Positions 1,155 through 26,103 are shown, counted from the first letter of the stretch. The stretch is DNA of 29,357 nucleotides from a virus (IMGVR_UViG_3300012031_000058:1-29357), one strand, 5' to 3'. Translations and numbers: made by a program. Notes: generated by a model not told the origin, from the letters alone.

Positions 1155-4100
1155 CTATTTATTACGCTGCGCACCCTCGACGAACGGCTGCAGTACAGTC
1201 CCGATCACTTCTCCTACATTCTCTGGGGCTTTCTCATTGCCTTGAAGAGCGGAGTCCAGGTAGTCGAGCGGCCGTGTGACGTTGCCTAGTCCAGGGACCG
1301 CGTAGTATGTTCCTGCCACTTTCAAGAAGTTATTCAGCCCCTCTATCGGGGTCACTTCACCTTCTATCGCCCGACCGGCGAAACCTGGGAGCTCCATCGC
1401 AGTCCCGACCGCATCATCAATCAGCGTGCTCGGCTTAAACGAGTTCTGGGAGGGCAGCAGATCCCCAAAGATAGGGATAGTCGCGCCCATGAACCCTGTG
1501 TACCCGAGACCAGCCCACTTCGCCAGCTTCAGCATGAACTCACCCCCATCCTCGTCATCGCCCCACTGCGGGATGTTCATCGCTATGACCTCAGATATCA
1601 TCATCGTTAGCAGAGGAGTCAGGACCAGCGCCTCAAACGCTGGCACACTTACTATCCCCGTGCCGCCTTTGGTGTTGCGATACGCCCGCTGGAACACTGA
1701 GCTGTTGAACCAAGACCCAAACACCACCAGCATCTTCATGTAGTCAGCTTCATTGGATCTGAATATCTTACCTAGGTGCAGGTCCATACCAGAGCCGATA
1801 GTCTCAGCCACACGTACGTCGGCATCGATTATGGCCTTTTGCTCGTCCCCGTGGTTTAGCATGCCCTCTTGATATGTGGCCATCCATGTTGGGTAGGACA
1901 CAATCATATCTAGCATCACGTGAGGGGTGAACCCGTGCTGGGCAAACTTGTTGGATATCTCCTCATACTTGGAGCCGGTCTCGACGCGCTTCAGCATGTC
2001 CGCAGACTCTCGGTTGAGGTGGACCTTCCGGCCTCTCATCTGGGCAGACTTCCGCTCTACAAAATCTCGGTTCTCTTTAAAGTTACCGTGGAAAGAAGTA
2101 GCCGCTGACAGGTAGTTGATGGGGCCCATCTCCGCCATCGAGGGGACCACAGAGGCCAACTGCTGAAGCACATTCTTCACGTTGTACGCAAGGTACATCA
2201 TAGACTTCGCGTACCGCAGCTGCCGCATGATGGCCGCCAGAGTGGTAGACGAATCCGATTCTTTATAATTAGTGGTCAGGCCTTGGATCGACTGCAGTAA
2301 CGCCTTGTCATACCCCTCGCCCATCTTATCAGCGATCATGGCCCGAACGTCTTTATGGTTAAAGATGTGCTGGAGCTCGACCGCGGTTTTAGCATACGCG
2401 ACAAAGTGCGCGTTCTCTTCCACTGTCCGGTATATGTTCTGGACCTCGAGCAGAGGTACCCTCCCTCCGGATCCTTTCCTCTCGATCACCGAACCCACCT
2501 TGCTGTTGACCACTGAGTTCACGGCGCTAAGAGGATCAGAGTCTAGTCGTAGTTTAGTGTCAGCAGCAGACCCACTGTAGAACAGGCGCATGTGGCCACC
2601 ACTCATCGCCTTGCCGTTGACGGTGAATGGCATATTTTGCAGCTTTGCAGGTGCCACTCCTTCTCGGTCATGGGCAGCGTTAAATATGTCCGGCATCATG
2701 TGGTCGCTGTGCCCCCAGATACCTTGGACCATGTCGAGCTCTTCCTCGGACAAGAAGCTCATCATGCTCTCGACATCTTTATCGGTCACATTGTAGCCCT
2801 GTCGTATGGCCTCTCGGCTGGTTTCTGTGCCCCAGTAAACCGTGAGCATGAACCGCTGCCGAGCAGACAGCACCCACTTAGATCCGTCTTCCTTAATCAC
2901 GGTCTGGCCGGACGTCTTACTGTCGGCTAGCTTCCTGAGATCCTTGCCTGCGAACATATCGTCGAGCACTTTGTAGTACTCTTCGGTCTTGGCCAGCTTG
3001 GTGTTCTCCGCGTCTGATATGCGCCGGTAGATGGAGTCAAAGAACGCGCCATCACCTAGGTCTCGGATCATGTTACGCAGAGAAGGCACCAGCATGATCA
3101 TGTGCTGTCTGCCTGCTCGGCCTTGCTTAGTTTTAGTGCTGAGCCATGGGTTTATCTTAGCTTCCATAGCCTTGATCTTTTCCTCAAGCGCAACACGCTG
3201 CGGCGTAGGGGTAGGCCCCATCTGCTCTAGCTTGGCATTCATATCCTCCAGGCCTTGCTCTTTCTTGGACTTCTTCAACCCGAGCTGGGCCAGTAGCCCC
3301 TCACGCTCCACAACAAGCTCTGACTTAGATTCGGTTGCGATCTTGCCTCCAACAAACCGCAGATGTTTAAGCTGGTCGTGGACGCTCTGAAGCTCCTCTA
3401 ATGTCATCTCGTCGAACGATGGAAGTATCTCTGTGCCGGCTTGTAGCCCCGCAATGTTGAGGTCTTTCAAGCTCACATCAACACCGTCTCGTTGCTGGCC
3501 CGCGAGCCAGTCCCCGAACTGCCTAGCCCGTGCTACCCGCGCAGGTTGATTAGGTCGGTTACTCGTGTCATATAACCTGGCGAGCCGGCGGATAGACTGA
3601 GCGAACTCAGGATCCACTGTGCTGGCCTTGTAGACCCTCTTCTGCATATCCTTAATAAGTTTACGAAACTTACCAGCGTCGGACTGAGCTTTCAGTGCGG
3701 CCTTATAGAGGTAGTGGTTAGCGAGCTGCTGCAGTTTGGCTTCGTACGCTTCCTCCATTGTCTTGGCTCTGACAGTGTTCTTGGCAGCACGGACCTCGGC
3801 TCGGTAGAACCGGTTCGGTTTAAGCTCAGAATAAGTCATACCGCTAACAGCTTCCGCAGCCTTAGCTTTCAGGAACTCGATGTCCACATCTGGGGTGGAC
3901 TTGTTGCGCAGCTTAGCCTTAATAGCTTTCAGCTCATCCAGCATCAGCTGTGCCTGCACTTCATTGTGCATAGCATCTCTGGCCTCTTGCTCGATGGACC
4001 CGTCGTTCATTATGTCGCCGTACTTAGCGATCATTATCTTCTCGGCCTCAGCATCAGCAGCAGCCTCCAACCCAATAGAATTGTGGATATCGATTACCAT

Positions 4101-7100
4101 CTCACTCAGCGAGTCAAACCCGAGCTCCTCGACCATAGTTGAGGGATCCTCTCCCCCATTCTTGGCCATGAAATTGAGCTTGGAATTAGCAGGCATAGTC
4201 TCCAGGCCAAGTGCTTCTAGCACCATCGCTCGGTCTATCTTTATGTCCTTAAGGATCCGAATAGCTTGGTACACCGGAGTCACTTCGAGTGTCTCCCGCT
4301 GCTCATCTAATATAGGCTGCTTCTCTTCGTTCCACTCCTTGCTTCTGCGGTACCGGAGCTCTTTCAGCAGCTTCTCGAACAGCGTGGCCTCTGCTTTCTC
4401 TACTCGCTCACTTGCTCGTTTCTGGTGTGCCTCCCACTGCTTATCGGTGAACCCCATACCTTCTTGGTTCTTAAAGAACTGCTCGTACTCGGGACCAGCG
4501 GCCACACCTGCTATCGCCGCGTCAGTGGCCAGCATCCGGTCAAACACCTCGGTGACTTCCTTAGACAGGGGTAGCCCCAGCTGGCGCATGGACTTGTAGA
4601 TTCTTCTCAGCCACTGCCTGAAGTAGCTGAACGCCACTTGCAGGTCTCTAGTGGGGGCTTTGCCCTGCCGCAGGTAATCCTCGAACGTGCGGGCAAACAG
4701 CTCGTGCTCGTTGCGTGTGATCTTGTCGAATGAATCAACCTTCAGCATCTTAAGGATGGCTTTCTGCTTATCCCCCAGCCCATACTTTCTAGCCAGCTGC
4801 TTTTCTGTCTCTAGGAATAGGTGAGACGCCTCGTGCAGAAAAGTGGACTCGTCCGAGGTCTTGCCTAGCCGGATGATTCTCTCATCGTTGGGCAGCATCT
4901 CCATCTCACCCCGAGGCTCTGGTGACGCTCCTTTCTTCTGGGCCAGTATCGTGGCCTCATTCGCTCGGCCAGGGTCAAACGCCGCGTGAATAGATCTGAT
5001 GTCGGCAGGAGAGTAGAGGGCGTGGTTCTTCACCTTGTCATTTCTTTCGCCGGACTCGAACCCCTCGGACACAGTAAAGCCTGAGTACCCTGCCATCTGT
5101 AGGGCCTCTTGGATGACCTCGTCGGACTCTACTGTCTGCCAGTCGCCCCTGCGGATGGCGCTTATTCTCCAGCCGATTGAGCCAGGGATGTCTGAGTCGA
5201 AGTCAGTGCTGAGGATTTGCTGCATAGCGGCCTCTAGCCGGCTAGTGTCTTCTCGGGTGATACTCTCATGGTCTAGGATATCTACGTCTTTAATTAGTAC
5301 GGGGTACACTGTCGGGGTCGGCTGGCCCCCTTCCTCTAGGTCATCAGCGTAAGGGTTTATGAGTCCAGCGTAGTCGGTAGCGAACTCTGGGTCAGCTGAC
5401 ACGAATATGAAGGGTCTGCCCATTCCCTCGTAGTCTGGGATAAATGCCACAATCGTATTGGTTTGGCTGCCGTGGTAGAAGATCTGCTTGATGTTAAAGC
5501 CCATAGACTCAGCTCTGGCCATTCTAGCCTCGAAGGTCATACCTTCTGGGCCAAACTTCTGCAGAGCTCTGGCATACTCGATGCCCTCAGCTATGTTATC
5601 GCCTTGGTACCCAGTAGCGTCTCGGATCAGGCCCAGAGCTTCCTGAGCTTGGGCTAGGTCAATGTCCTCAATTTCCTCGACCGCTATGGTGGGGATCACG
5701 TCTGGGAGCATTAACTCAATTTGAGCGACTAGGTCATCAAAGGACTGATTCTGGAATAGAACTTGGTTGGAAACAACTGACAGCCCTTTTCTAGCTGCCC
5801 GTTCTTGTGTTGTTCCTAGGTCAAACACCTCGTCGATCACGTTCAGAACCTCGGAGATGCTCATGTCCGTGGGGTACTTAGCGGTGCCTACAATCTCTTT
5901 GCGATACTTTTGGTACTCGTCCGGATCTCTGAGCGCACGAATGTCTAGCTTACTGGTTATAAGCGTGAACGCCGCTTCTCTGGACCGCTTCTCGGTCGCG
6001 GTGGTTCTGTCTTCCGCGACCAGCATTGCCTTGACCGCGAACGGGTCCGAGACCAACGTGTCGTAGGCTTCGCCCTCTGCGCGGGATGCGTCATTAAACT
6101 CTTCAACGGTATTGAACCCAGCTTTCTTAGCGAAGAACTCGCTGAGCGGGTCAGAACCAGTGACATCTAGATCACCTTCAGCCCGCATTATGGTCTCCAC
6201 GTCAGTGGACCCTAGATATGAGATGCTGTCCTGGTTTAGGACAATCTTACCTCGTCTGGAAGCTGTTGCTCTAACTCCTCCGTCCACGGCACTGGCTGCC
6301 CCGTCGGGTACGCCATCTCCAGGTATGCCTCCCTTGTAACTGGAATCTGGTATACTCGCATCATTTCCAACAGTGGATCCGACCCAGGTTGGTCGGTTAA
6401 TTTTGCCGGCATGTTCATTGACTAACTCCTGTGCTTTCTTCTGTGTGATTTTCCCATCGCGGTACTTTTTCCAGATGGCTCTTACTTCTAACTGGTTCTC
6501 GGAGACCTGGATCTCTTTTCTCTTACCGCCGTCCATTTTAAAGTTGCCGGTGCCCACCTTACGAGCAGCTTTGTACCGAGCCGTGAATAGCCCCCGCGCA
6601 GCCTCCCAAGTAATAGACTGCATCTGGCGAGGCTGAAGACCCCTTGCCAGAGCGGCTCTCCGGTACGCTTCCGCGTATAAACCGTACGTGCCTTTTGTAC
6701 CAGTGAATTTAGTGGAGCTAGATCCAGCGCCCCCAAAGTTTTGCACCACTTCGAGGTCCTCACCAGCCAAAGGGACCAGCAATGCCGCAGCCACAGCGTG
6801 TGTATCTATCGTGACACTTGTGTTGTCCAGCAGTGGGTTTATTATGTTGTTGTAAAAGTTGCGGACCTTATGCTGGTCCCCGATCTGGTTGCTGATGTTA
6901 TCTTCTGTTGGGTTCTCTAGGGCACTCACAGCTTTAGCGATCGTAGGAACTGAGCTCCACTGGATGGCAGTCTTGGCTCCTTTCTGGGTGAGCATCACCT
7001 CTTTGAAGTCGCCCTCTGGAGATACAATCCGGTGCTCTTGCGAGTTGTGGGCCTCGTCATATATACGGATCCACATGGCTCGCTCTGCGGTCAGATTCAT

Positions 7101-7889
7101 CTCGCTTAGCTTCTTGCCCTTTATAAAGGCCAGCGGCTTCTTGAACTTGGCGCCCCCAAAGATACGGTTTGCGGTCCGCGTCATCTGTGGAGACCACTCC
7201 GTGTTCTGGTGGTCAGTGTAGATATCTACGATCCGCTCACCGAGAGATACGTTCATGTACCAATCTTTCTGCGGGGACATTGCGGCCATCACGCCTGCAA
7301 CAGCCTCTGGACTGTGGCCGTATCGTTCAGAGAGTCTGTCTGTTATAGCTCTAGCACCCTCGTACCACATGGTGGACCGTTGCCGGTCGGCTTCGTCAGT
7401 GTTGTCGTGCAGCCACAGTAGGTTGTCCACCATGTGCTGGACAAACCGTTCGGCCTGCTTCTCTGGAGTGTCGGCTGATTTTATAGGCCGGTAGTTGTTG
7501 TATGCCGTGACCACCTCAATGTTCTTCTGGAAAGTTTTATCTACCCGCTTTTGAGTTTCCTCAGGGAAGTCTATGCCCTCGCCTTTCATGGCTTGGAGCC
7601 CGACAACTAGCGGCGTAGCACGGAAGTCTTCCACGGCTTGGGGGCCGCCAGGTGTGCGAGTAGATAAACTTTTAGGGAGGCTGGCTTGCTCTAGGGTCTG
7701 GGTGGCGTTAGCGATCATCGCGTCCCGCTGGCCCTGAACCTGCTCTATTCGGTCTTGTACAGCGTTGAGCTCGGCCTCTCGCTTCCCGAGACCTTTGCTC
7801 CGGTAGTAAGAGACAAGCGTGTCGAGGCCTGAAGTGTCAAAGCCTTCCAGCGCGTCTTTGTAGTCCAGAAGACATTTATTCAGGCTCAT
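1155..7889 (-). CDS. Large polyvalent internal virion (DNA ejection) protein, C-terminal part: glycosylase-like domain, ADP-ribosyltransferase domain, zincin metallopeptidase, helical ejection core
   Basis: 2244 aa at the end of the ejection cluster. Motifs: WY..MSPQKDW..N / KVRNFYNNI / VTIDTHA / MQSITW (aa ~135-490); FYHGS..FVS.DP.FA.DYA..VYPV..IRSIHAAFDP (ART, aa ~785-980); STFLHEASH..HELFA..FEDYL..GKAP (HExxH at 4821..4835). Confidence 0.85.
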   Translation of the reverse strand: MSLNKCLLDYKDALEGFDTSGLDTLVSYYRSKGLGKREAELNAVQDRIEQVQGQRDAMIANATQTLEQASLPKSLSTRTPGGPQAVEDFRATPLVVGLQAMKGEGIDFPEETQKRVDKTFQKNIEVVTAYNNYRPIKSADTPEKQAERFVQHMVDNLLWLHDNTDEADRQRSTMWYEGARAITDRLSERYGHSPEAVAGVMAAMSPQKDWYMNVSLGERIVDIYTDHQNTEWSPQMTRTANRIFGGAKFKKPLAFIKGKKLSEMNLTAERAMWIRIYDEAHNSQEHRIVSPEGDFKEVMLTQKGAKTAIQWSSVPTIAKAVSALENPTEDNISNQIGDQHKVRNFYNNIINPLLDNTSVTIDTHAVAAALLVPLAGEDLEVVQNFGGAGSSSTKFTGTKGTYGLYAEAYRRAALARGLQPRQMQSITWEAARGLFTARYKAARKVGTGNFKMDGGKRKEIQVSENQLEVRAIWKKYRDGKITQKKAQELVNEHAGKINRPTWVGSTVGNDASIPDSSYKGGIPGDGVPDGAASAVDGGVRATASRRGKIVLNQDSISYLGSTDVETIMRAEGDLDVTGSDPLSEFFAKKAGFNTVEEFNDASRAEGEAYDTLVSDPFAVKAMLVAEDRTTATEKRSREAAFTLITSKLDIRALRDPDEYQKYRKEIVGTAKYPTDMSISEVLNVIDEVFDLGTTQERAARKGLSVVSNQVLFQNQSFDDLVAQIELMLPDVIPTIAVEEIEDIDLAQAQEALGLIRDATGYQGDNIAEGIEYARALQKFGPEGMTFEARMARAESMGFNIKQIFYHGSQTNTIVAFIPDYEGMGRPFIFVSADPEFATDYAGLINPYADDLEEGGQPTPTVYPVLIKDVDILDHESITREDTSRLEAAMQQILSTDFDSDIPGSIGWRISAIRRGDWQTVESDEVIQEALQMAGYSGFTVSEGFESGERNDKVKNHALYSPADIRSIHAAFDPGRANEATILAQKKGASPEPRGEMEMLPNDERIIRLGKTSDESTFLHEASHLFLETEKQLARKYGLGDKQKAILKMLKVDSFDKITRNEHELFARTFEDYLRQGKAPTRDLQVAFSYFRQWLRRIYKSMRQLGLPLSKEVTEVFDRMLATDAAIAGVAAGPEYEQFFKNQEGMGFTDKQWEAHQKRASERVEKAEATLFEKLLKELRYRRSKEWNEEKQPILDEQRETLEVTPVYQAIRILKDIKIDRAMVLEALGLETMPANSKLNFMAKNGGEDPSTMVEELGFDSLSEMVIDIHNSIGLEAAADAEAEKIMIAKYGDIMNDGSIEQEARDAMHNEVQAQLMLDELKAIKAKLRNKSTPDVDIEFLKAKAAEAVSGMTYSELKPNRFYRAEVRAAKNTVRAKTMEEAYEAKLQQLANHYLYKAALKAQSDAGKFRKLIKDMQKRVYKASTVDPEFAQSIRRLARLYDTSNRPNQPARVARARQFGDWLAGQQRDGVDVSLKDLNIAGLQAGTEILPSFDEMTLEELQSVHDQLKHLRFVGGKIATESKSELVVEREGLLAQLGLKKSKKEQGLEDMNAKLEQMGPTPTPQRVALEEKIKAMEAKINPWLSTKTKQGRAGRQHMIMLVPSLRNMIRDLGDGAFFDSIYRRISDAENTKLAKTEEYYKVLDDMFAGKDLRKLADSKTSGQTVIKEDGSKWVLSARQRFMLTVYWGTETSREAIRQGYNVTDKDVESMMSFLSEEELDMVQGIWGHSDHMMPDIFNAAHDREGVAPAKLQNMPFTVNGKAMSGGHMRLFYSGSAADTKLRLDSDPLSAVNSVVNSKVGSVIERKGSGGRVPLLEVQNIYRTVEENAHFVAYAKTAVELQHIFNHKDVRAMIADKMGEGYDKALLQSIQGLTTNYKESDSSTTLAAIMRQLRYAKSMMYLAYNVKNVLQQLASVVPSMAEMGPINYLSAATSFHGNFKENRDFVERKSAQMRGRKVHLNRESADMLKRVETGSKYEEISNKFAQHGFTPHVMLDMIVSYPTWMATYQEGMLNHGDEQKAIIDADVRVAETIGSGMDLHLGKIFRSNEADYMKMLVVFGSWFNSSVFQRAYRNTKGGTGIVSVPAFEALVLTPLLTMMISEVIAMNIPQWGDDEDGGEFMLKLAKWAGLGYTGFMGATIPIFGDLLPSQNSFKPSTLIDDAVGTAMELPGFAGRAIEGEVTPIEGLNNFLKVAGTYYAVPGLGNVTRPLDYLDSALQGNEKAPENVGEVIGTVLQPFVEGAQRNK
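6236..6418 (-). CDS. Nested out-of-frame small acidic protein (candidate immunity/inhibitor)
   Basis: 60 aa in the +1 frame of the 2244-aa gene, with AGGAG 7 nt upstream of ATG. Globular-looking sequence (DPLLEMM..IPVTREAYLEMAY..PWTEELEQQLPDE), while the host frame here is a low-complexity G/D/S/A linker. Confidence 0.7.
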   Translation of the reverse strand: MNMPAKLTDQPGSDPLLEMMRVYQIPVTREAYLEMAYPTGQPVPWTEELEQQLPDEVRLS

Positions 7890-13419: not shown

Positions 13420-13760
13420 CGGTAGATGTCCCCTTGAATAGTTGTCATATAGTACTCGAAACCTATCTTGCGCAACACTCTGGGCGCATTATTCTCTTCT
13501 GGGTCGGCCACGGCGTACACCACTTCGTAGTGCTGCTGCAAGAATGCGTCGAAAGATTTAATCACTCGCATGATGTCTCTCGGGTGGTCCCGCATGGCTG
13601 GAGTAAGGTTGGCGAACGCATACGGGGGACTCGTGTGAATTACCCCCGCTACCGCCACTGCCTTGCCTCCCACTTCGGCGACCACAGCTCTAATGCTTTT
13701 ACCAAACGAATTGAGATCCAGGTTAGTTAGGTCTTCCGCTTCCATCGGTCGGATCATCAA
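13395..13760 (-). CDS. GNAT-fold acetyltransferase-like protein (T7 gp13 position)
   Basis: 'IRPMEAEDL..AVAVAG..ADPEENNAPRVLRKIGF' GNAT pattern; conserved position after the nozzle. Confidence 0.75.
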   Translation of the reverse strand: MMIRPMEAEDLTNLDLNSFGKSIRAVVAEVGGKAVAVAGVIHTSPPYAFANLTPAMRDHPRDIMRVIKSFDAFLQQHYEVVYAVADPEENNAPRVLRKIGFEYYMTTIQGDIYRWQQQPYH

Positions 13761-16700
13761 TGTCCTCTACCTCGTATGTTATTGCCAGCATTGTGGCTGG
13801 CCCAGTTGTTTGCACCGTCACCCGCGAGTCCGTGTCGTACGTCCCATCAAACTCAAATGACATTTCATCATAGTCTACCAGCTGCCACGACCTTTGGTCA
13901 GCGACATATAGAAAACCATCTGGATCAGTATTAGATCCGGCGAACACTTGGTTGGCCGAGAAAGTCCGAATCGCCTGAAGGCCCGCAAACCCAGTGTACT
14001 CCGCAAGGACTGTTGGTGTATCGATAGAGGTGTACGAAACAACGCACCCTGTTGTGCCACCCGCGAACCACAAGTACGGCGCATACGCAGACATGTCCCT
14101 CATTCCCTGCAGCTTTGTCGCAGTGACTGACCCGAGAAGTGTCGGAACCAAGGCGTCGTCCGCTAGACTGTAGATATTCAAAGTCCCTGCAGTGGGATCC
14201 AGAACAAACATGTTGGATCCGTCCACAAGGCAGTACTCGGCCGCACCTAGCCCAGTCCCGAAGACAGTAACATCCATATCAGCTGGGTTGCTCTTGTCCA
14301 CGATATGGACCCGCTCTTCCCACGCGATATACAAGTACTGCCCTCTTGACCCAATCATCTCTGGCGCCACAGGGTCACCTGTTGTCACTAGCGCCAAGCT
14401 GGACTCGACCGCTAGTGACGCGGGGTCGCTGATGTTTATAGCGGACACAGAGCCTGCGAGGGCGTGCCCGACCGTGTATAGAAAAGGGGAGTCTATCCAC
14501 ATCCCTCTTGGTACGGGCACGTCGGGTATGCCAGCACTGGCGCCCTCTAGGTAGTCCACCTGCACAGGTGAGGTGATGTCAGTGATATCCACTGCCGCGA
14601 TGCCCCTCTTCACCGTAGCCACTGTGCTGGTCCTAGTGAGGAAAAAAGCGAACGAGCTGTCCTGCTTGCACCGGTATGAGAAGAGATGGTCTCCGGATGT
14701 TCCTGTCGCGAGGAGAGCGGTGGAACCCGCGACGAACATCGCGCTAGGGGAGGTCACGTCTATAATCTGAGCCGGCCCTCCTCCCGATGATATCTCGTTG
14801 TCGGCCTCGTTGGTCTGGGTCCATGTGTCCCCTGCGATGTCGTACACCCACAGGTCTTTGACCGCGAACGGTGGAGCTGGGGATACTCCAGTCGTCTGAT
14901 CGAGAGATCCTGTCTTTACAAAAATACTCTCGCCGTCTGTCCAGACCGCTGACTCCGACCTGTTGAATGGAACTGTGGTGTCGGTGTAGTCAGATAGGTC
15001 CGTCAGCGTTGACCACGTGTTGGTAGCGATGTCGTACTCGTTGAGCGTCCGCTGTGGGAAAAACCCGAACTGGGGTACCGTCCCCCCAAATGTGTACAGC
15101 TTCCCATTACCAGGTGCCACCATGCTCCGGAGTGCGCTTCGGGATAGCCCCGCAGTGCTTAACGCGCTCCACGTGTTAGTCCCGATGTTATACTCAAAGA
15201 ATGACAGGATGACTTGGTTAGTAACCATGTCCGCTCCCTCTAACATGTAAAATTTACCTGCGCCGGCGCCAGTCTTCGGCAGTGCCGTTGAGGGGGAACG
15301 CTTGAGCGTAGGGGGTGATACGGGAGTTAACGTGGACCACGTGTCCGTGGCGATATCGTACGCATAGAACCCTCCCGTGCTCGTGCTTTGCTGAGCCCCG
15401 TACAGGTAAACTTTACCGTTATAGGTTTGTATGTCGGACTTGAAAATACCGGTAGTAGGGGCATTGGCTAAGGTAGACCAAGTCCCCGCGCCGATGTCGT
15501 ACCTGGTGAAGTTAGGAGTGAGGTTGGTGTAGGCGTACAGGTACTCATCAACCACGTTGTCGTATGCCAGCGAGGGGTACCCCGCACCGCCCCCTGGCAT
15601 GTCGTCGAAGTCAAAAGCAGTGACCGATGCGACGCTGGGATTCACTTGAATTAAATTTTGCATATTACCGTTCGAGTCGGTGTTGCCGCCCACTACCCAG
15701 TTCACGCCGCCGCTGGATATTGGCCCGCCCACGTTCACTGCAGCTTGTTGCCGGCGAGACTCGTCGGTGAACGCGGTCGAATTGGTGGCGCAGAGAAGGT
15801 AAGAACCTGGCCCGTCGTACTGCTCCATGCCATTGATCGTTAAACCACCCGTGAGACTCCCCACGATAGTAGGCTCTGGCTCAGTGGTAGGTGCCCTTGG
15901 TCGGCCCTCGTCGATGTCTGGCATCGGTTGCAGCCGGTTCACGTCTGACCCGTACAGTAAATTCCTAAGCGCGACGGACCGCATGACTAGCCCTATCTGG
16001 ACTACCCGCTTGCGGTAATTGAGGACCGTTTTTTCTACATACCGGCTCAGCCTGTTGCTGGTCCATGTGGCAGTCGGGCGAAGCCCCACCACGACATCGG
16101 TCCATCCGGATGAAGCTAATGTGATCTGGCCGCTCGAAACTGTTGCGGCTCCTTTCTCCACCCCATCGGCCCAGACGTAGACGTCCAGCCCCTCTAGGTG
16201 GTCTAGACCGTCGAAAGTCCCCCCAGGGGAGCGTTTGTACACGTGTGAGTCGTAGTGCCTAGAGTCGGTCTCTCCGCGGCTTTGAGAAAACTTAGCGAGG
16301 CGCTCTATGTACCGGACGCCGTCCCGCTCCACCACCATATATATCTCATCCTCAGCAGCAGTCGGAGCTGATGTTATATCCTCCACGGTCCCGCCCCCGC
16401 CTAGGGTTATCCTAGACCACGCGGTCACATCTTCAACATTATCAAACAGTAGGACTCGTAGCTCACCGTTAGTCAGCAAGCAGTACATCCTCGGCTCTGG
16501 CTCGCTCGAGTAGATTAACTTCTTTATGCCTGGGGCGCAGATGTCTGGGTGTAGGATTGTAGTGTCGTTAGCAGATATCTGCTCACCCTTCAGGCCGCTG
16601 AGTGCAAATAGTTTAAGCAGGCTGCGGTTAACAAAATAAACAATCTGATCCACGACAGCCGGACGGACCTCAGCGGACCCCTTGTTGGTTCCTCGCTTGA

Positions 16701-18150
16701 CGTTCGCGTTGTTTGCGTTCAGCGGGTTGAAATCACCATTGGACTTCACCTGCACCTCTTCTGAGCTAAGGCCCAACAGCAGCACGTCGCCGCCTAGGAG
16801 CCACGCTACGTCTTGAACAGGCCCAAAGCCTATGGTCTTAACAATAGATGCGGAGTTGCCCTCTAGGAGCTCATCAAACGACGTGTAAAGGTCTGAGACA
16901 GATCCGTACAGCCTAGCTCCACCAGCCAGCCAGAGCCGGCCTTCGTACACCTCAACAGCTGTAGGGGATGGTAGGTACGGCGCGAATAATCCTTCCCACC
17001 ACTCTTTGACTGCACCGGTCCCACCGAAAGACTCAAGCACTCGGGCATTAGCCACCGTCGGAGAGACCACGGACATGACTTGCGCCTTCCCATAAACATC
17101 CCCGTGTAGCAGCTGGTATGTTTTCAGCACTGATTTAGTAGTGTCAAATATGGCGGAGCTGGCAGTCAGTGTGATGTTCCCATTCACAGCTGACGGCGCC
17201 AGAGTAGTGGAGGTCACATTGATATTGCCGAATGGCCCATCTGTTATATCTGGCAGCTCAAAGGACCAGGACTTCTGCCCTAGTCTTTTTATAATCCAGA
17301 AGGGCCAGCTGAACCCGTTTATCTCGTACCCACCGTCGACTATGAACATCACGTCGTTGATCTGGGTGTACCGCAAGGTGTCTAAGGTGATCGCGGTGGT
17401 TGTAGTATCTGTGGCCATATTGCCGGTAAGAGTTAACTCACCCACCCCGTCATACGCGATGTTGTCTACAAACGCGGCGTACCCCGCGAAGTTAGAAAGA
17501 GTGAGAGTGGTGTCGGATCCGTCAGAAGTCCAAGTGAGGAGGTGCACCCCAAACCCTAAGTACCCCTCGAATATGTCCGACGTAAGGGCTCCGCCTGTGC
17601 CGAGCTGGCAAAGTATGGGGGACTCGGATACTTCTATCCTTAGTGTCCTCTCGCCTGCTGAGCAGGTAAGGGTCTGATAGGCTCTTCCCCAGTCCCCATC
17701 ACCTGGCCCGCCCTGAATAAGCATCCTCTGGGTGGTTGGCTCGTGAGCTATTCCTTCCGCTCCGGATCCAGTTGACGCATCGGTCCAGCCGGTTATGTTT
17801 GAGGCAAAAGCACCGTTGGTGATAGTGTCCGTCGTGGCTGTCACCTGAGCTAATATCCCATTGATCCAGAACCGGACAGACTCCACACTTGGATTAGCTG
17901 TGGACTGAGAGAACTCTAGGATCGTAGGGACCGTGCCATCATCTACGAATGGCATTAAGAAGTGCGCTCCGTTCACTTTGGCTGTGCCCAAGAACTCGGT
18001 CCCAGGCCGAGTGCGCATCGTACCAACACGGGCAGGCATCCAGTTGTCCACCAGAGTCGCAGAGTTGTTTACGCGCTCGATGTCGTCGCGGGCCATGACG
18101 CCTTCATCGACTTCACCACGGTTGAATTTATTAGTATAGGTGCGGCTCAT
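13723..18150 (-). CDS. Tail nozzle (tail tubular protein B, gp12-like) with inserted carbohydrate-binding-like, Kelch and LVIVD-type propeller domains
   Basis: N-terminal 'FNRGEV..R.D..N..P..G....RPGT.F', 'YTQINDVMFI', 'P.AV..YEGRLWLAG', 'V.AWSR', 'RYIERL' and C-terminal 'V.VQ..GPATMLAI'. About 670-aa insert at ~13880..15895. Confidence 0.85.
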   Translation of the reverse strand: MSRTYTNKFNRGEVDEGVMARDDIERVNNSATLVDNWMPARVGTMRTRPGTEFLGTAKVNGAHFLMPFVDDGTVPTILEFSQSTANPSVESVRFWINGILAQVTATTDTITNGAFASNITGWTDASTGSGAEGIAHEPTTQRMLIQGGPGDGDWGRAYQTLTCSAGERTLRIEVSESPILCQLGTGGALTSDIFEGYLGFGVHLLTWTSDGSDTTLTLSNFAGYAAFVDNIAYDGVGELTLTGNMATDTTTTAITLDTLRYTQINDVMFIVDGGYEINGFSWPFWIIKRLGQKSWSFELPDITDGPFGNINVTSTTLAPSAVNGNITLTASSAIFDTTKSVLKTYQLLHGDVYGKAQVMSVVSPTVANARVLESFGGTGAVKEWWEGLFAPYLPSPTAVEVYEGRLWLAGGARLYGSVSDLYTSFDELLEGNSASIVKTIGFGPVQDVAWLLGGDVLLLGLSSEEVQVKSNGDFNPLNANNANVKRGTNKGSAEVRPAVVDQIVYFVNRSLLKLFALSGLKGEQISANDTTILHPDICAPGIKKLIYSSEPEPRMYCLLTNGELRVLLFDNVEDVTAWSRITLGGGGTVEDITSAPTAAEDEIYMVVERDGVRYIERLAKFSQSRGETDSRHYDSHVYKRSPGGTFDGLDHLEGLDVYVWADGVEKGAATVSSGQITLASSGWTDVVVGLRPTATWTSNRLSRYVEKTVLNYRKRVVQIGLVMRSVALRNLLYGSDVNRLQPMPDIDEGRPRAPTTEPEPTIVGSLTGGLTINGMEQYDGPGSYLLCATNSTAFTDESRRQQAAVNVGGPISSGGVNWVVGGNTDSNGNMQNLIQVNPSVASVTAFDFDDMPGGGAGYPSLAYDNVVDEYLYAYTNLTPNFTRYDIGAGTWSTLANAPTTGIFKSDIQTYNGKVYLYGAQQSTSTGGFYAYDIATDTWSTLTPVSPPTLKRSPSTALPKTGAGAGKFYMLEGADMVTNQVILSFFEYNIGTNTWSALSTAGLSRSALRSMVAPGNGKLYTFGGTVPQFGFFPQRTLNEYDIATNTWSTLTDLSDYTDTTVPFNRSESAVWTDGESIFVKTGSLDQTTGVSPAPPFAVKDLWVYDIAGDTWTQTNEADNEISSGGGPAQIIDVTSPSAMFVAGSTALLATGTSGDHLFSYRCKQDSSFAFFLTRTSTVATVKRGIAAVDITDITSPVQVDYLEGASAGIPDVPVPRGMWIDSPFLYTVGHALAGSVSAINISDPASLAVESSLALVTTGDPVAPEMIGSRGQYLYIAWEERVHIVDKSNPADMDVTVFGTGLGAAEYCLVDGSNMFVLDPTAGTLNIYSLADDALVPTLLGSVTATKLQGMRDMSAYAPYLWFAGGTTGCVVSYTSIDTPTVLAEYTGFAGLQAIRTFSANQVFAGSNTDPDGFLYVADQRSWQLVDYDEMSFEFDGTYDTDSRVTVQTTGPATMLAITYEVEDIDDPTDGSGRPN

Positions 18151-25671: not shown

Positions 25672-26103
25672 CTACGAGAGGCTACGGACTGTGGCTAGGA
25701 ACAGCTTGTCTTTGGTCTGCTGCTCCGATGGGAGCTCTTTGTACGGGACCATGCACGGGTGGGTTTTCTTCACTGAGTCTTTCACAGGCCCGTGCTTCCA
25801 CCCCTGCGCCTCCTTAGACTTGAGCCATTTCTTGTGGCTGTCCTCAGGTTTTACGTTAGGGTTAGCCAGTGCGTACTGCACTCCTGCAATGGCTGAGGAT
25901 CGAATGCCTGGGTCGGCGTCGTCCCAGTCCGGTTGAGTCTTCTCACCGAGCAACTCTTGGTACGCAGTGTTCACGGCGTGGCACATCTTGGCGATTCGAG
26001 TCACTAGCAGGTTGCTGGGCTCGAACGCCTCGTTGACCACTGGTGTTGATGGGTCGTCACCTTTGAACTGCCCGTCTTCTTCTCTCGCTCTTTTCTTCGG
26101 CAT
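25672..26103 (-). CDS. RyR-domain protein with N-terminal RAR..GQF..DDPSTP..NEA peptide
   Basis: 'SH..WL..K...GW..GPVKD...KTHPCMVPY.ELP..QQ.KD.LF' is the RyR repeat signature. Confidence 0.85.
   Translation of the reverse strand: MPKKRAREEDGQFKGDDPSTPVVNEAFEPSNLLVTRIAKMCHAVNTAYQELLGEKTQPDWDDADPGIRSSAIAGVQYALANPNVKPEDSHKKWLKSKEAQGWKHGPVKDSVKKTHPCMVPYKELPSEQQTKDKLFLATVRSLS

Follow-up and report, generated by a model that had tools for sequence, protein, structure and literature searches.

Organization of the locus

The window, by which we mean the whole stretch of 29,357 nucleotides analysed, is a 29-kb virus record with a CheckV completeness of 54%. Its minus strand carries a module in the order terminase, head-tail connector, capsid, tail, T7 gp14-like internal protein, LPD22 protein, the 2244-aa gene, and holin (Table 1). 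The 2244-aa product fits the description of a polyvalent protein, that is, a large multidomain protein of the virion module, and the position of its gene suggests that it is packaged in the virion. Among 24 host ORFs scanned from relatives, several of which are cut by locus ends, the DUF7178 domain is accompanied by LPD22, LPD38, LPD3, ART-PolyVal, RadC and GGDEF domains. The domain is internal in the window protein, where 1692 aa follow it, and terminal in 20 of 73 representatives.

Table 1. Features of the 2244-aa gene and of the gene nested within it (window coordinates).
Feature	Coordinates	Strand	Remarks
2244-aa polyvalent-type protein	1155..7889	minus	End of podovirus-like virion module
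DUF7178 domain with insertion, host aa 131-502	6384..7499	minus	Pfam PF23802; HhH-GPD/Ogg2-like model fold
Lys341 (domain K211), invariant; putative catalytic lysine	6867..6869	minus	In predicted interface
Asp362 (domain D232, T-I-D-T-H motif), invariant; putative catalytic aspartate	6804..6806	minus	In predicted interface
AGGAG Shine-Dalgarno of nested gene	6426..6430	minus	Host codons Q-E, last helix of DUF7178 domain
Nested gene, 60 codons, ATG start	6236..6418	minus	+1 frame; small acidic helical product; model pLDDT 75
Host-frame linker, aa 503-550	6240..6383	minus	Holds nested-gene core; freely drifting
Weak ART-PolyVal-like stretch, aa 803-842	5364..5483	minus	E 0.012, below Pfam cut-off
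HExxH motif, aa 1019-1023; zincin-type peptidase candidate	4821..4835	minus	Weak Tox-MPTase2 match, E 0.27

The initial annotation of this stretch had called a 60-codon ORF in the +1 frame of the 2244-aa gene, with an AGGAG Shine-Dalgarno (SD) sequence 7 nt ahead of its ATG and an acidic product, and our recount agrees on each of these points. The nested start lies 1471 nt from the host start, with its first base within host codon N491, and this offset places the ORF in the +1 frame. The SD forms an anti-SD duplex of -6.9 kcal/mol, and the 60-aa product has 10 D/E residues versus 4 K/R. Two further descriptions were only partly right. The host frame is a G/D/S/A linker, as had been stated, from residue 503 onwards, whereas nested codons 1 to 13 still fall on the conserved domain end. 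The nested TAA does lie within an L-N codon pair (host codons L551-N552, in a VLNQ stretch), but the argument that this marks an LNQ module border is weak. We rejected an "LNQ boundary" as a family feature: an LxQ motif is found near the nested stop in only 4 of 29 relatives, versus 2.3% of background windows, and the nested stop falls on L/I/V host codons because the genetic code forces it to.

Of 3363 control +1-frame windows taken from the same host genes, 1.1% contain an ATG that opens 45 codons and is served by an SD of -5 kcal/mol or better. The ten large genes of the window contain 21 same-strand nested ATG ORFs of at least 35 aa, and among these the 60-codon ORF has both the strongest SD and the most acidic product. 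Other nested ATG ORFs with an SD of -5 kcal/mol or better have minus-strand starts at 17093, 14084 (+1) and 24898 (+2); two of the three are basic and shadow-frame-like. Contigs from runs X2 and X3 show no indel across the nested ORF, and the reading frames are therefore not an assembly error; the X2 contig is near-identical to the window and may be its source, and the X3 contig covers 596 nt (6059-6654), with one variant, at position 6331, that alters both frames. Among the runs listed as carrying the sequence, none was of RNA.

Searches with the 60-aa protein found no known family in Pfam or PHROG. As a single query it gave no match in a word-index search, 0 loci in a scan of viral contigs, and one chance match (E 6) against GenBank phages; the small-protein family is detectable only through neighbourhood, profile and full HMMER searches. 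Comparison of its model with solved structures gave a best VIA Z of 2.9, which demonstrates neither a new nor a different fold, and an Atlas comparison yielded a lead of 0.77 only.

Conservation of the small gene and coupling to the DUF7178 domain

Homologs were surveyed in the best 80 of the 294 viral loci in which the domain was found, together with 47 genome loci. With a profile of the small protein, its gene was detected after the domain at 71 of these 80 viral loci, in nested form at 45 and in a partial or downstream position at 26. This count is partly circular because the profile was built from the same viral loci; in the genome loci, an independent set, it found the gene in 25 of 47. 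The loci, and likewise the pairs, are related to one another, and the counts given here are not independent. Across the window and 127 loci there are 62 fully nested cases (window included), every one of them in the +1 frame. In a further 30 the domain is terminal and the small gene overlaps or abuts its end; in 4 the gene lies free downstream, 1 is an apparent fusion, and 31 are without a match. Four loci without a profile match were counted as divergent members by eye.

The reciprocal search, with the small protein, was assessed on the best 80 of 179 loci, 79 of which were new. The domain lies just upstream in 77 of these 79, and 73 are nested; of the remaining two, one contig is cut short and in the other the gene is inverted. 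Inverted small genes, on the opposite strand and tail-to-tail at the domain stop, are found at L101:1848-2078 (-) and L202:3980-4162 (+), which indicates that the coupling to the domain is independent of overlap. Whether nested, partly overlapping, free-standing or inverted, the small gene always adjoins the domain.

The ORF, its SD and its motif are all conserved behind the domain in homologs, as had been proposed for a genuine nested gene. The PVTRExYL-type motif of the product is kept in relatives, and net charge is negative in 29 of 32 aligned small proteins (median -5). Of 34 loci, 29 have an ATG at most 25 codons from the core, and 25 of these 29 nested ATGs are preceded by an SD that attains -5 kcal/mol or better; the corresponding share of 972 control windows is 17%. 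In total, 273 clusters at 90% identity match the profile; clustering at 50% leaves 183 matches, some few of which are repeat artefacts. Two repeat artefacts (P0124, P0216) and one doubtful repeat protein (P0169) were left out. In five other proteins (P0146, P0156, P0250, P0130 and P0162) the small domain occurs in tandem or fused to other sequence, including a predicted membrane protein, and these products are possible orphan inhibitors.

Routine annotation misses the hidden gene. In the GenBank phage OP947163, for example, the nested homologue (L129:6998-7216, record positions 2353-2135) is unannotated, and the giant CDS around it is annotated as "methyltransferase" only. This homologue is a divergent one, with a profile E-value of 5e-4 and an SD that is weak by duplex energy.

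Selection on the overlapping frames

We compared the two frames over nested residues 14-56 in 34 non-redundant nested loci, using an alignment built on the nested frame, and found 36.7% identity in the nested frame, where the host frame reaches 22.0%. Pair by pair, the nested score is the higher one in 555 of 561 comparisons; the pairs are not independent of one another. Over residues 1-13 the relation is reversed (27.0% nested versus 39.1% host), because these codons overlap the conserved domain end (G-x-I-N-x-P-x-W).

Polymorphism counts need no gapped alignment. They were made in four groups of close relatives, with group g47 excluded as not comparable without gaps. At 50 polymorphic sites in the overlap, the change is silent in the nested frame at 36 and in the host frame at 2, so that 48 of the 50 alter a host residue. 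A control region upstream, where only the host frame is coding, has 85 such sites, of which 47 leave the host residue unchanged. The small protein also persists in loci whose host frame is riddled with stops. The frame-specific selection that had been named as a check is thus found: the nested frame is under purifying selection. Having passed each of the sequence tests applied, the nested ORF is almost certainly a real gene.

The DUF7178 domain as a putative glycosylase

The AlphaFold2 model of the domain (pLDDT 91) matches the two-domain helical HhH-GPD fold in VIA. The best VIA-wide match is Thermotoga Ogg2 Tm1821 (3n0u), with a Z of 9.6, modest for a helical protein, and an rmsd of 3.8 over 185 aligned residues; AGOG, two queuine salvage enzymes, endonuclease III, MutY and AlkA relatives follow. 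Of 20 rows at Z of at least 5, 18 are titled DNA glycosylases or endonuclease III relatives and the other 2 are the queuine salvage enzymes. Neither PDB sequence searches nor Foldseek returned a solved relative of the domain. All 73 representatives have K211 and D232 unchanged. The catalytic role of the two residues is assigned by motif, and they match the Lys-Asp pair described for OGG enzymes (PMC3397491). The model therefore bears out the description of the domain as glycosylase-like, and we regard it as a putative DNA glycosylase/AP lyase that most likely acts on a modified purine rather than on plain bases.

With Ogg2 the domain shares the fold and, by motif, an invariant Lys...Asp pair, and it differs by about 170 extra residues and by an identity of only 13%. 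The C-terminal lysine of Ogg2 is described as a sensor of 8-oxoG (PMC3397491). The internal DUF7178 domain has no free C-terminal lysine, and its substrate is therefore probably a different one; those relatives that end after the domain mostly stop just behind the P-x-W motif. We considered and rejected membership of the Ogg2 family itself, given the lack of such a lysine and of a PF22175 profile match (0 of 1 own record; the control matched 3 of 14 genomes). Our literature search found no papers on DUF7178/PF23802. One further occurrence is gp40 of Roseobacter phage CRP-738 (L128:4690-7197), in which the domain lies near the C-terminus, two genes behind the portal, with no partner detected.

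Co-folding of the small protein and the domain with ESMFold2 gave a pair score of 0.72, and the best of 3 controls scored 0.00. Solved complexes reach this mark in 116 of 157 cases and mismatched pairs in 2 of 215, figures that are only rough when own alignments are used, as here. The runs share at least 80% of contacts, with a partner pLDDT of at least 76. The predicted interface comprises domain residues 76-77, 113-141, 183-192, 204-211 and 232-255, and contains K211 and D232-T233. The remaining interface positions mostly vary strongly among relatives, as expected of pairs that co-evolve, and we found no interface difference that sets the partner-less lineages (below) apart. The co-fold, another check named in the initial annotation, supports binding over the putative active site, with the small acidic protein predicted to sit as a cap across the cleft that contains it.

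Evolution of the cassette

A quick unrooted tree was made of 73 domain representatives, excluding L032, L049, L065, L113 and L122-L127 as partial or frameshifted. On it, 31 representatives have the nested layout, 4 are nested with a short host tail, 20 are terminal, 1 is inverted, 6 carry a different ORF and 11 carry none. On this tree the nested layout requires 12 changes and the terminal layout 8, of which well-supported branches force at least 4 and at least 5, respectively. Layouts have thus been interconverted repeatedly; the tree being unrooted, either direction is allowed. In 28 loci, the host sequence 3' of the nested stop sorts into 23 groups unrelated to one another, and hence the cassette ends where the hidden gene ends. 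The proposal that effector and nested gene form one cassette accordingly holds at its 3' side. The +1 phase was plausibly fixed by the last helix of the domain, which supplies both SD and start.

The partner is not detectable in 11 of the 73 domain lineages, where K211, D232 and H234 are intact. A profile search of three apparently whole phage records, G008 (100% complete), MZ892992 and OL791268, found the small protein nowhere in them; this search had no positive control of its own, and the same profile matched 5 of 5 other genomes. Nor was it found by search in five further, possibly incomplete genomes. Lineages with an intact motif and no partner indicate that the domain is not always dangerous to its producer, which weakens the original idea that a partner is always needed. 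These lineages might be explained if the substrate were conditional, for instance a modified base that occurs in certain hosts or phages and not in others. In ten partner-less loci (L030, L033, L058, L088, L093, L097, L104, L117, L119 and L130) the host frame behind the domain shows a W-x(10-15)-[S/T/V][S/T][Y/F] pattern, which resembles the S-S-Y beneath the nested P-V-T and may be either a relic of the overlap or a cis element.

Different-looking, net-acidic ORFs, picked by eye, fill the same +1 slot in six lineages. These slot-filling ORFs are of 56-84 aa (L102, L107 and L112; L110, L115 and L127; L111), the one in the frameshifted L127 being in +2, and they possibly represent two or three replacement families of inhibitors. 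We also considered in-frame fusions of the domain end and the small protein as genuine products. Such joins occur in 2 of 256 family proteins (P0123, P0158) and at locus L125, where the rest of the domain end lies in another frame, which points to an indel; we judged them to be mostly indels.

A probable nested inhibitor and competing explanations

Taking the sequence comparisons and the models together, we think it probable that the nested gene, written over the linker of a polyvalent protein of the virion, encodes the cognate inhibitor of the upstream glycosylase-like domain. Late in infection, a single mRNA would give rise to the 2244-aa polyprotein and also, by initiation at the internal SD, to the inhibitor, which would hold the base-excising domain off during phage DNA replication and packaging. 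The polyprotein would then enter the head without the inhibitor and be ejected into the next cell, where the uncapped domain would excise bases, most likely a modified purine, from DNA. The arrangement may have originated in an ordinary enzyme-then-inhibitor pair in which the inhibitor start already overlapped the last codons of the enzyme in +1; nesting would have followed when the reading frame of the enzyme remained open and gained additional cargo domains downstream, with lineages switching layouts several times. On balance we also lean towards a broader view, in which the antidotes of phage polyvalent proteins are encoded in the second frame of inter-domain linkers, the linkers being largely their shadow, and enzyme plus inhibitor make up an in-frame cassette that can be inserted anywhere in a polyprotein. 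This locus would then be the type case, as well as the first virion-delivered HhH-GPD effector with a dedicated inhibitor, replaceable by unrelated acidic ones.

The evidence has to be weighed against several other explanations. Were the nested ORF a mere shadow, its conservation would be a by-product of the host frame. The identity alignment, built as it was on the nested frame, and the X3 variant, which changes both frames, could be read in this way, but the polymorphism counts favour the nested frame by 36 to 2, the protein is kept where the host frame is full of stops, and 273 protein clusters match its profile; together with the inverted copies, these results refute the idea in effect, and we give it a negligible chance. 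It is also highly improbable that the ORF is read only by a programmed frameshift into +1, producing a shorter enzyme with a built-in C-terminal cap and no separate protein. An upstream SD is able to stimulate frameshifting, as it does in prfB, and the SD here could act likewise; the in-frame joins in P0123, P0158 and L125 leave a small chance of this. Against it, the spacing of SD and ATG is that of initiation, free-standing, +2 and inverted copies exist, and the L125 join looks like an indel.

Other explanations accept a separate protein and differ about its role. It is unlikely, though less so than the frameshift, that the small protein binds the domain as a folding chaperone, a packaging adaptor or an activity tuner rather than as an antidote. 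Besides the putative catalytic pair, a large share of the predicted contacts falls on the insertion (domain residues 113-141 and 183-192), and the motifs are intact in partner-less lineages, both of which such a role would accommodate. What argues for inhibition instead is that K211 and D232-T233 are in the predicted interface, that the protein is acidic, that its gene adjoins the domain even on the opposite strand at two loci, and that the acidic ORFs picked by eye in the same slot in six lineages resemble swapped immunity families. We rate as somewhat less likely still the suggestion that the inhibitor serves mainly as kin or superinfection immunity, shielding a cell that is infected or lysogenic when related phages eject the same enzyme into it, with self-protection secondary. 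Inverted copies cannot be read from the enzyme's own transcript, P0146, P0156 and P0250 carry extra sequence or tandem repeats, and the cassette is present in the genomes of named bacterial strains (L082, L084, L095, L096 and L100; L084 is Jannaschia seohaensis DSM 25227, and L095, L096 and L100 are Bradyrhizobium), all of which would suit immunity to kin. However, most copies are on the strand of the virion module, in or right behind the enzyme gene, which ties their expression to synthesis of the enzyme, and four of the five bacterial genomes examined hold one copy only.

Comparison with known systems

Same-strand nested genes are well known, among them lambda Rz1 in Rz, phiX174 E in D and Bacillus comS in srfAB. 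Like these, the gene described here has its own start and SD and lies out of frame, wholly within a larger gene. Unlike them, it encodes a predicted inhibitor that targets one domain of the protein in whose gene it is nested, and its present-day relatives include free-standing and partly overlapping forms as well as nested ones. Polymorphic toxin-immunity pairs resemble our locus in that a small gene follows the effector domain directly and moves together with it; they differ in that their effector is at the C-terminus of the carrier, whereas here it is internal.

Ugi and barstar are acidic inhibitors of nucleic-acid enzymes. Rehh immunity proteins are likewise reported to be acidic (10.64898/2026.09.22.753552). 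The nested product resembles all three in being small, acidic and (here by prediction) placed over a DNA-binding catalytic cleft, and in that unrelated families may share a slot. Its target is different: an HhH-GPD-fold domain, not a uracil glycosylase, an RNase or an HNH nuclease.

A close phage precedent is found in the MuF polymorphic toxins of temperate phages, for which it has been proposed that a head-associated protein delivers an enzyme domain with the DNA, and a small ORF is reported directly behind 89.4% of 191 muf toxin genes (Jamet 2017, PMC5576092). MuF toxins and the DUF7178 cassette have in common a phage virion-type protein and a small gene right behind the enzyme domain. In our case, unlike theirs, the enzyme domain is internal and glycosylase-like, and the partner is nested in the same ORF. 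The MuF Pfam family has no match in the window protein or in the host ORFs of 24 relatives, several of them cut by locus ends, and the word "glycosylase" is absent from the main text of the MuF paper (PMC5576092).

Polyvalent proteins (Iyer 2017, PMC5512222) resemble the host gene as giant multidomain proteins of the virion module with LPD, ART and peptidase-type domains, the ART and peptidase matches in the window protein itself being below cut-off. The main text of that paper contains neither "glycosylase" nor "overlap", and its available passages describe no cognate inhibitors for polyvalent domains. A literature search of titles and the beginnings of abstracts found no nested inhibitor gene in a phage virion protein. 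Enzyme and small-gene pairs in phage heads (MuF) and nested genes are already known; what appears to be new is their combination, a probable effector-immunity pair nested in a virion polyprotein.

The locus offers an answer to the question of how a phage builds a DNA-damaging enzyme in the middle of a polyprotein without harming itself during synthesis. It provides a candidate protein inhibitor for an enzyme of the HhH-GPD fold, and a means by which the DUF7178 domain might be cloned and assayed safely alongside its partner. The free, partial and nested states, found side by side, are a rare natural series for the origin of overlapping genes.

Additional features of the window

Three observations concern other parts of the window. 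LxQ motifs recur at apparent module borders of the 2244-aa protein (host aa 551, 711, 982 and 1533), and together with the HExxH motif at aa 1019 they are possible self-processing sites. A 1475-aa tail protein (13723-18150) contains a Kelch beta-propeller (PF24981, E 4e-19), and a 143-aa gene between terminase and connector (25672-26103) encodes an RyR domain (PF02026, E 2e-11).
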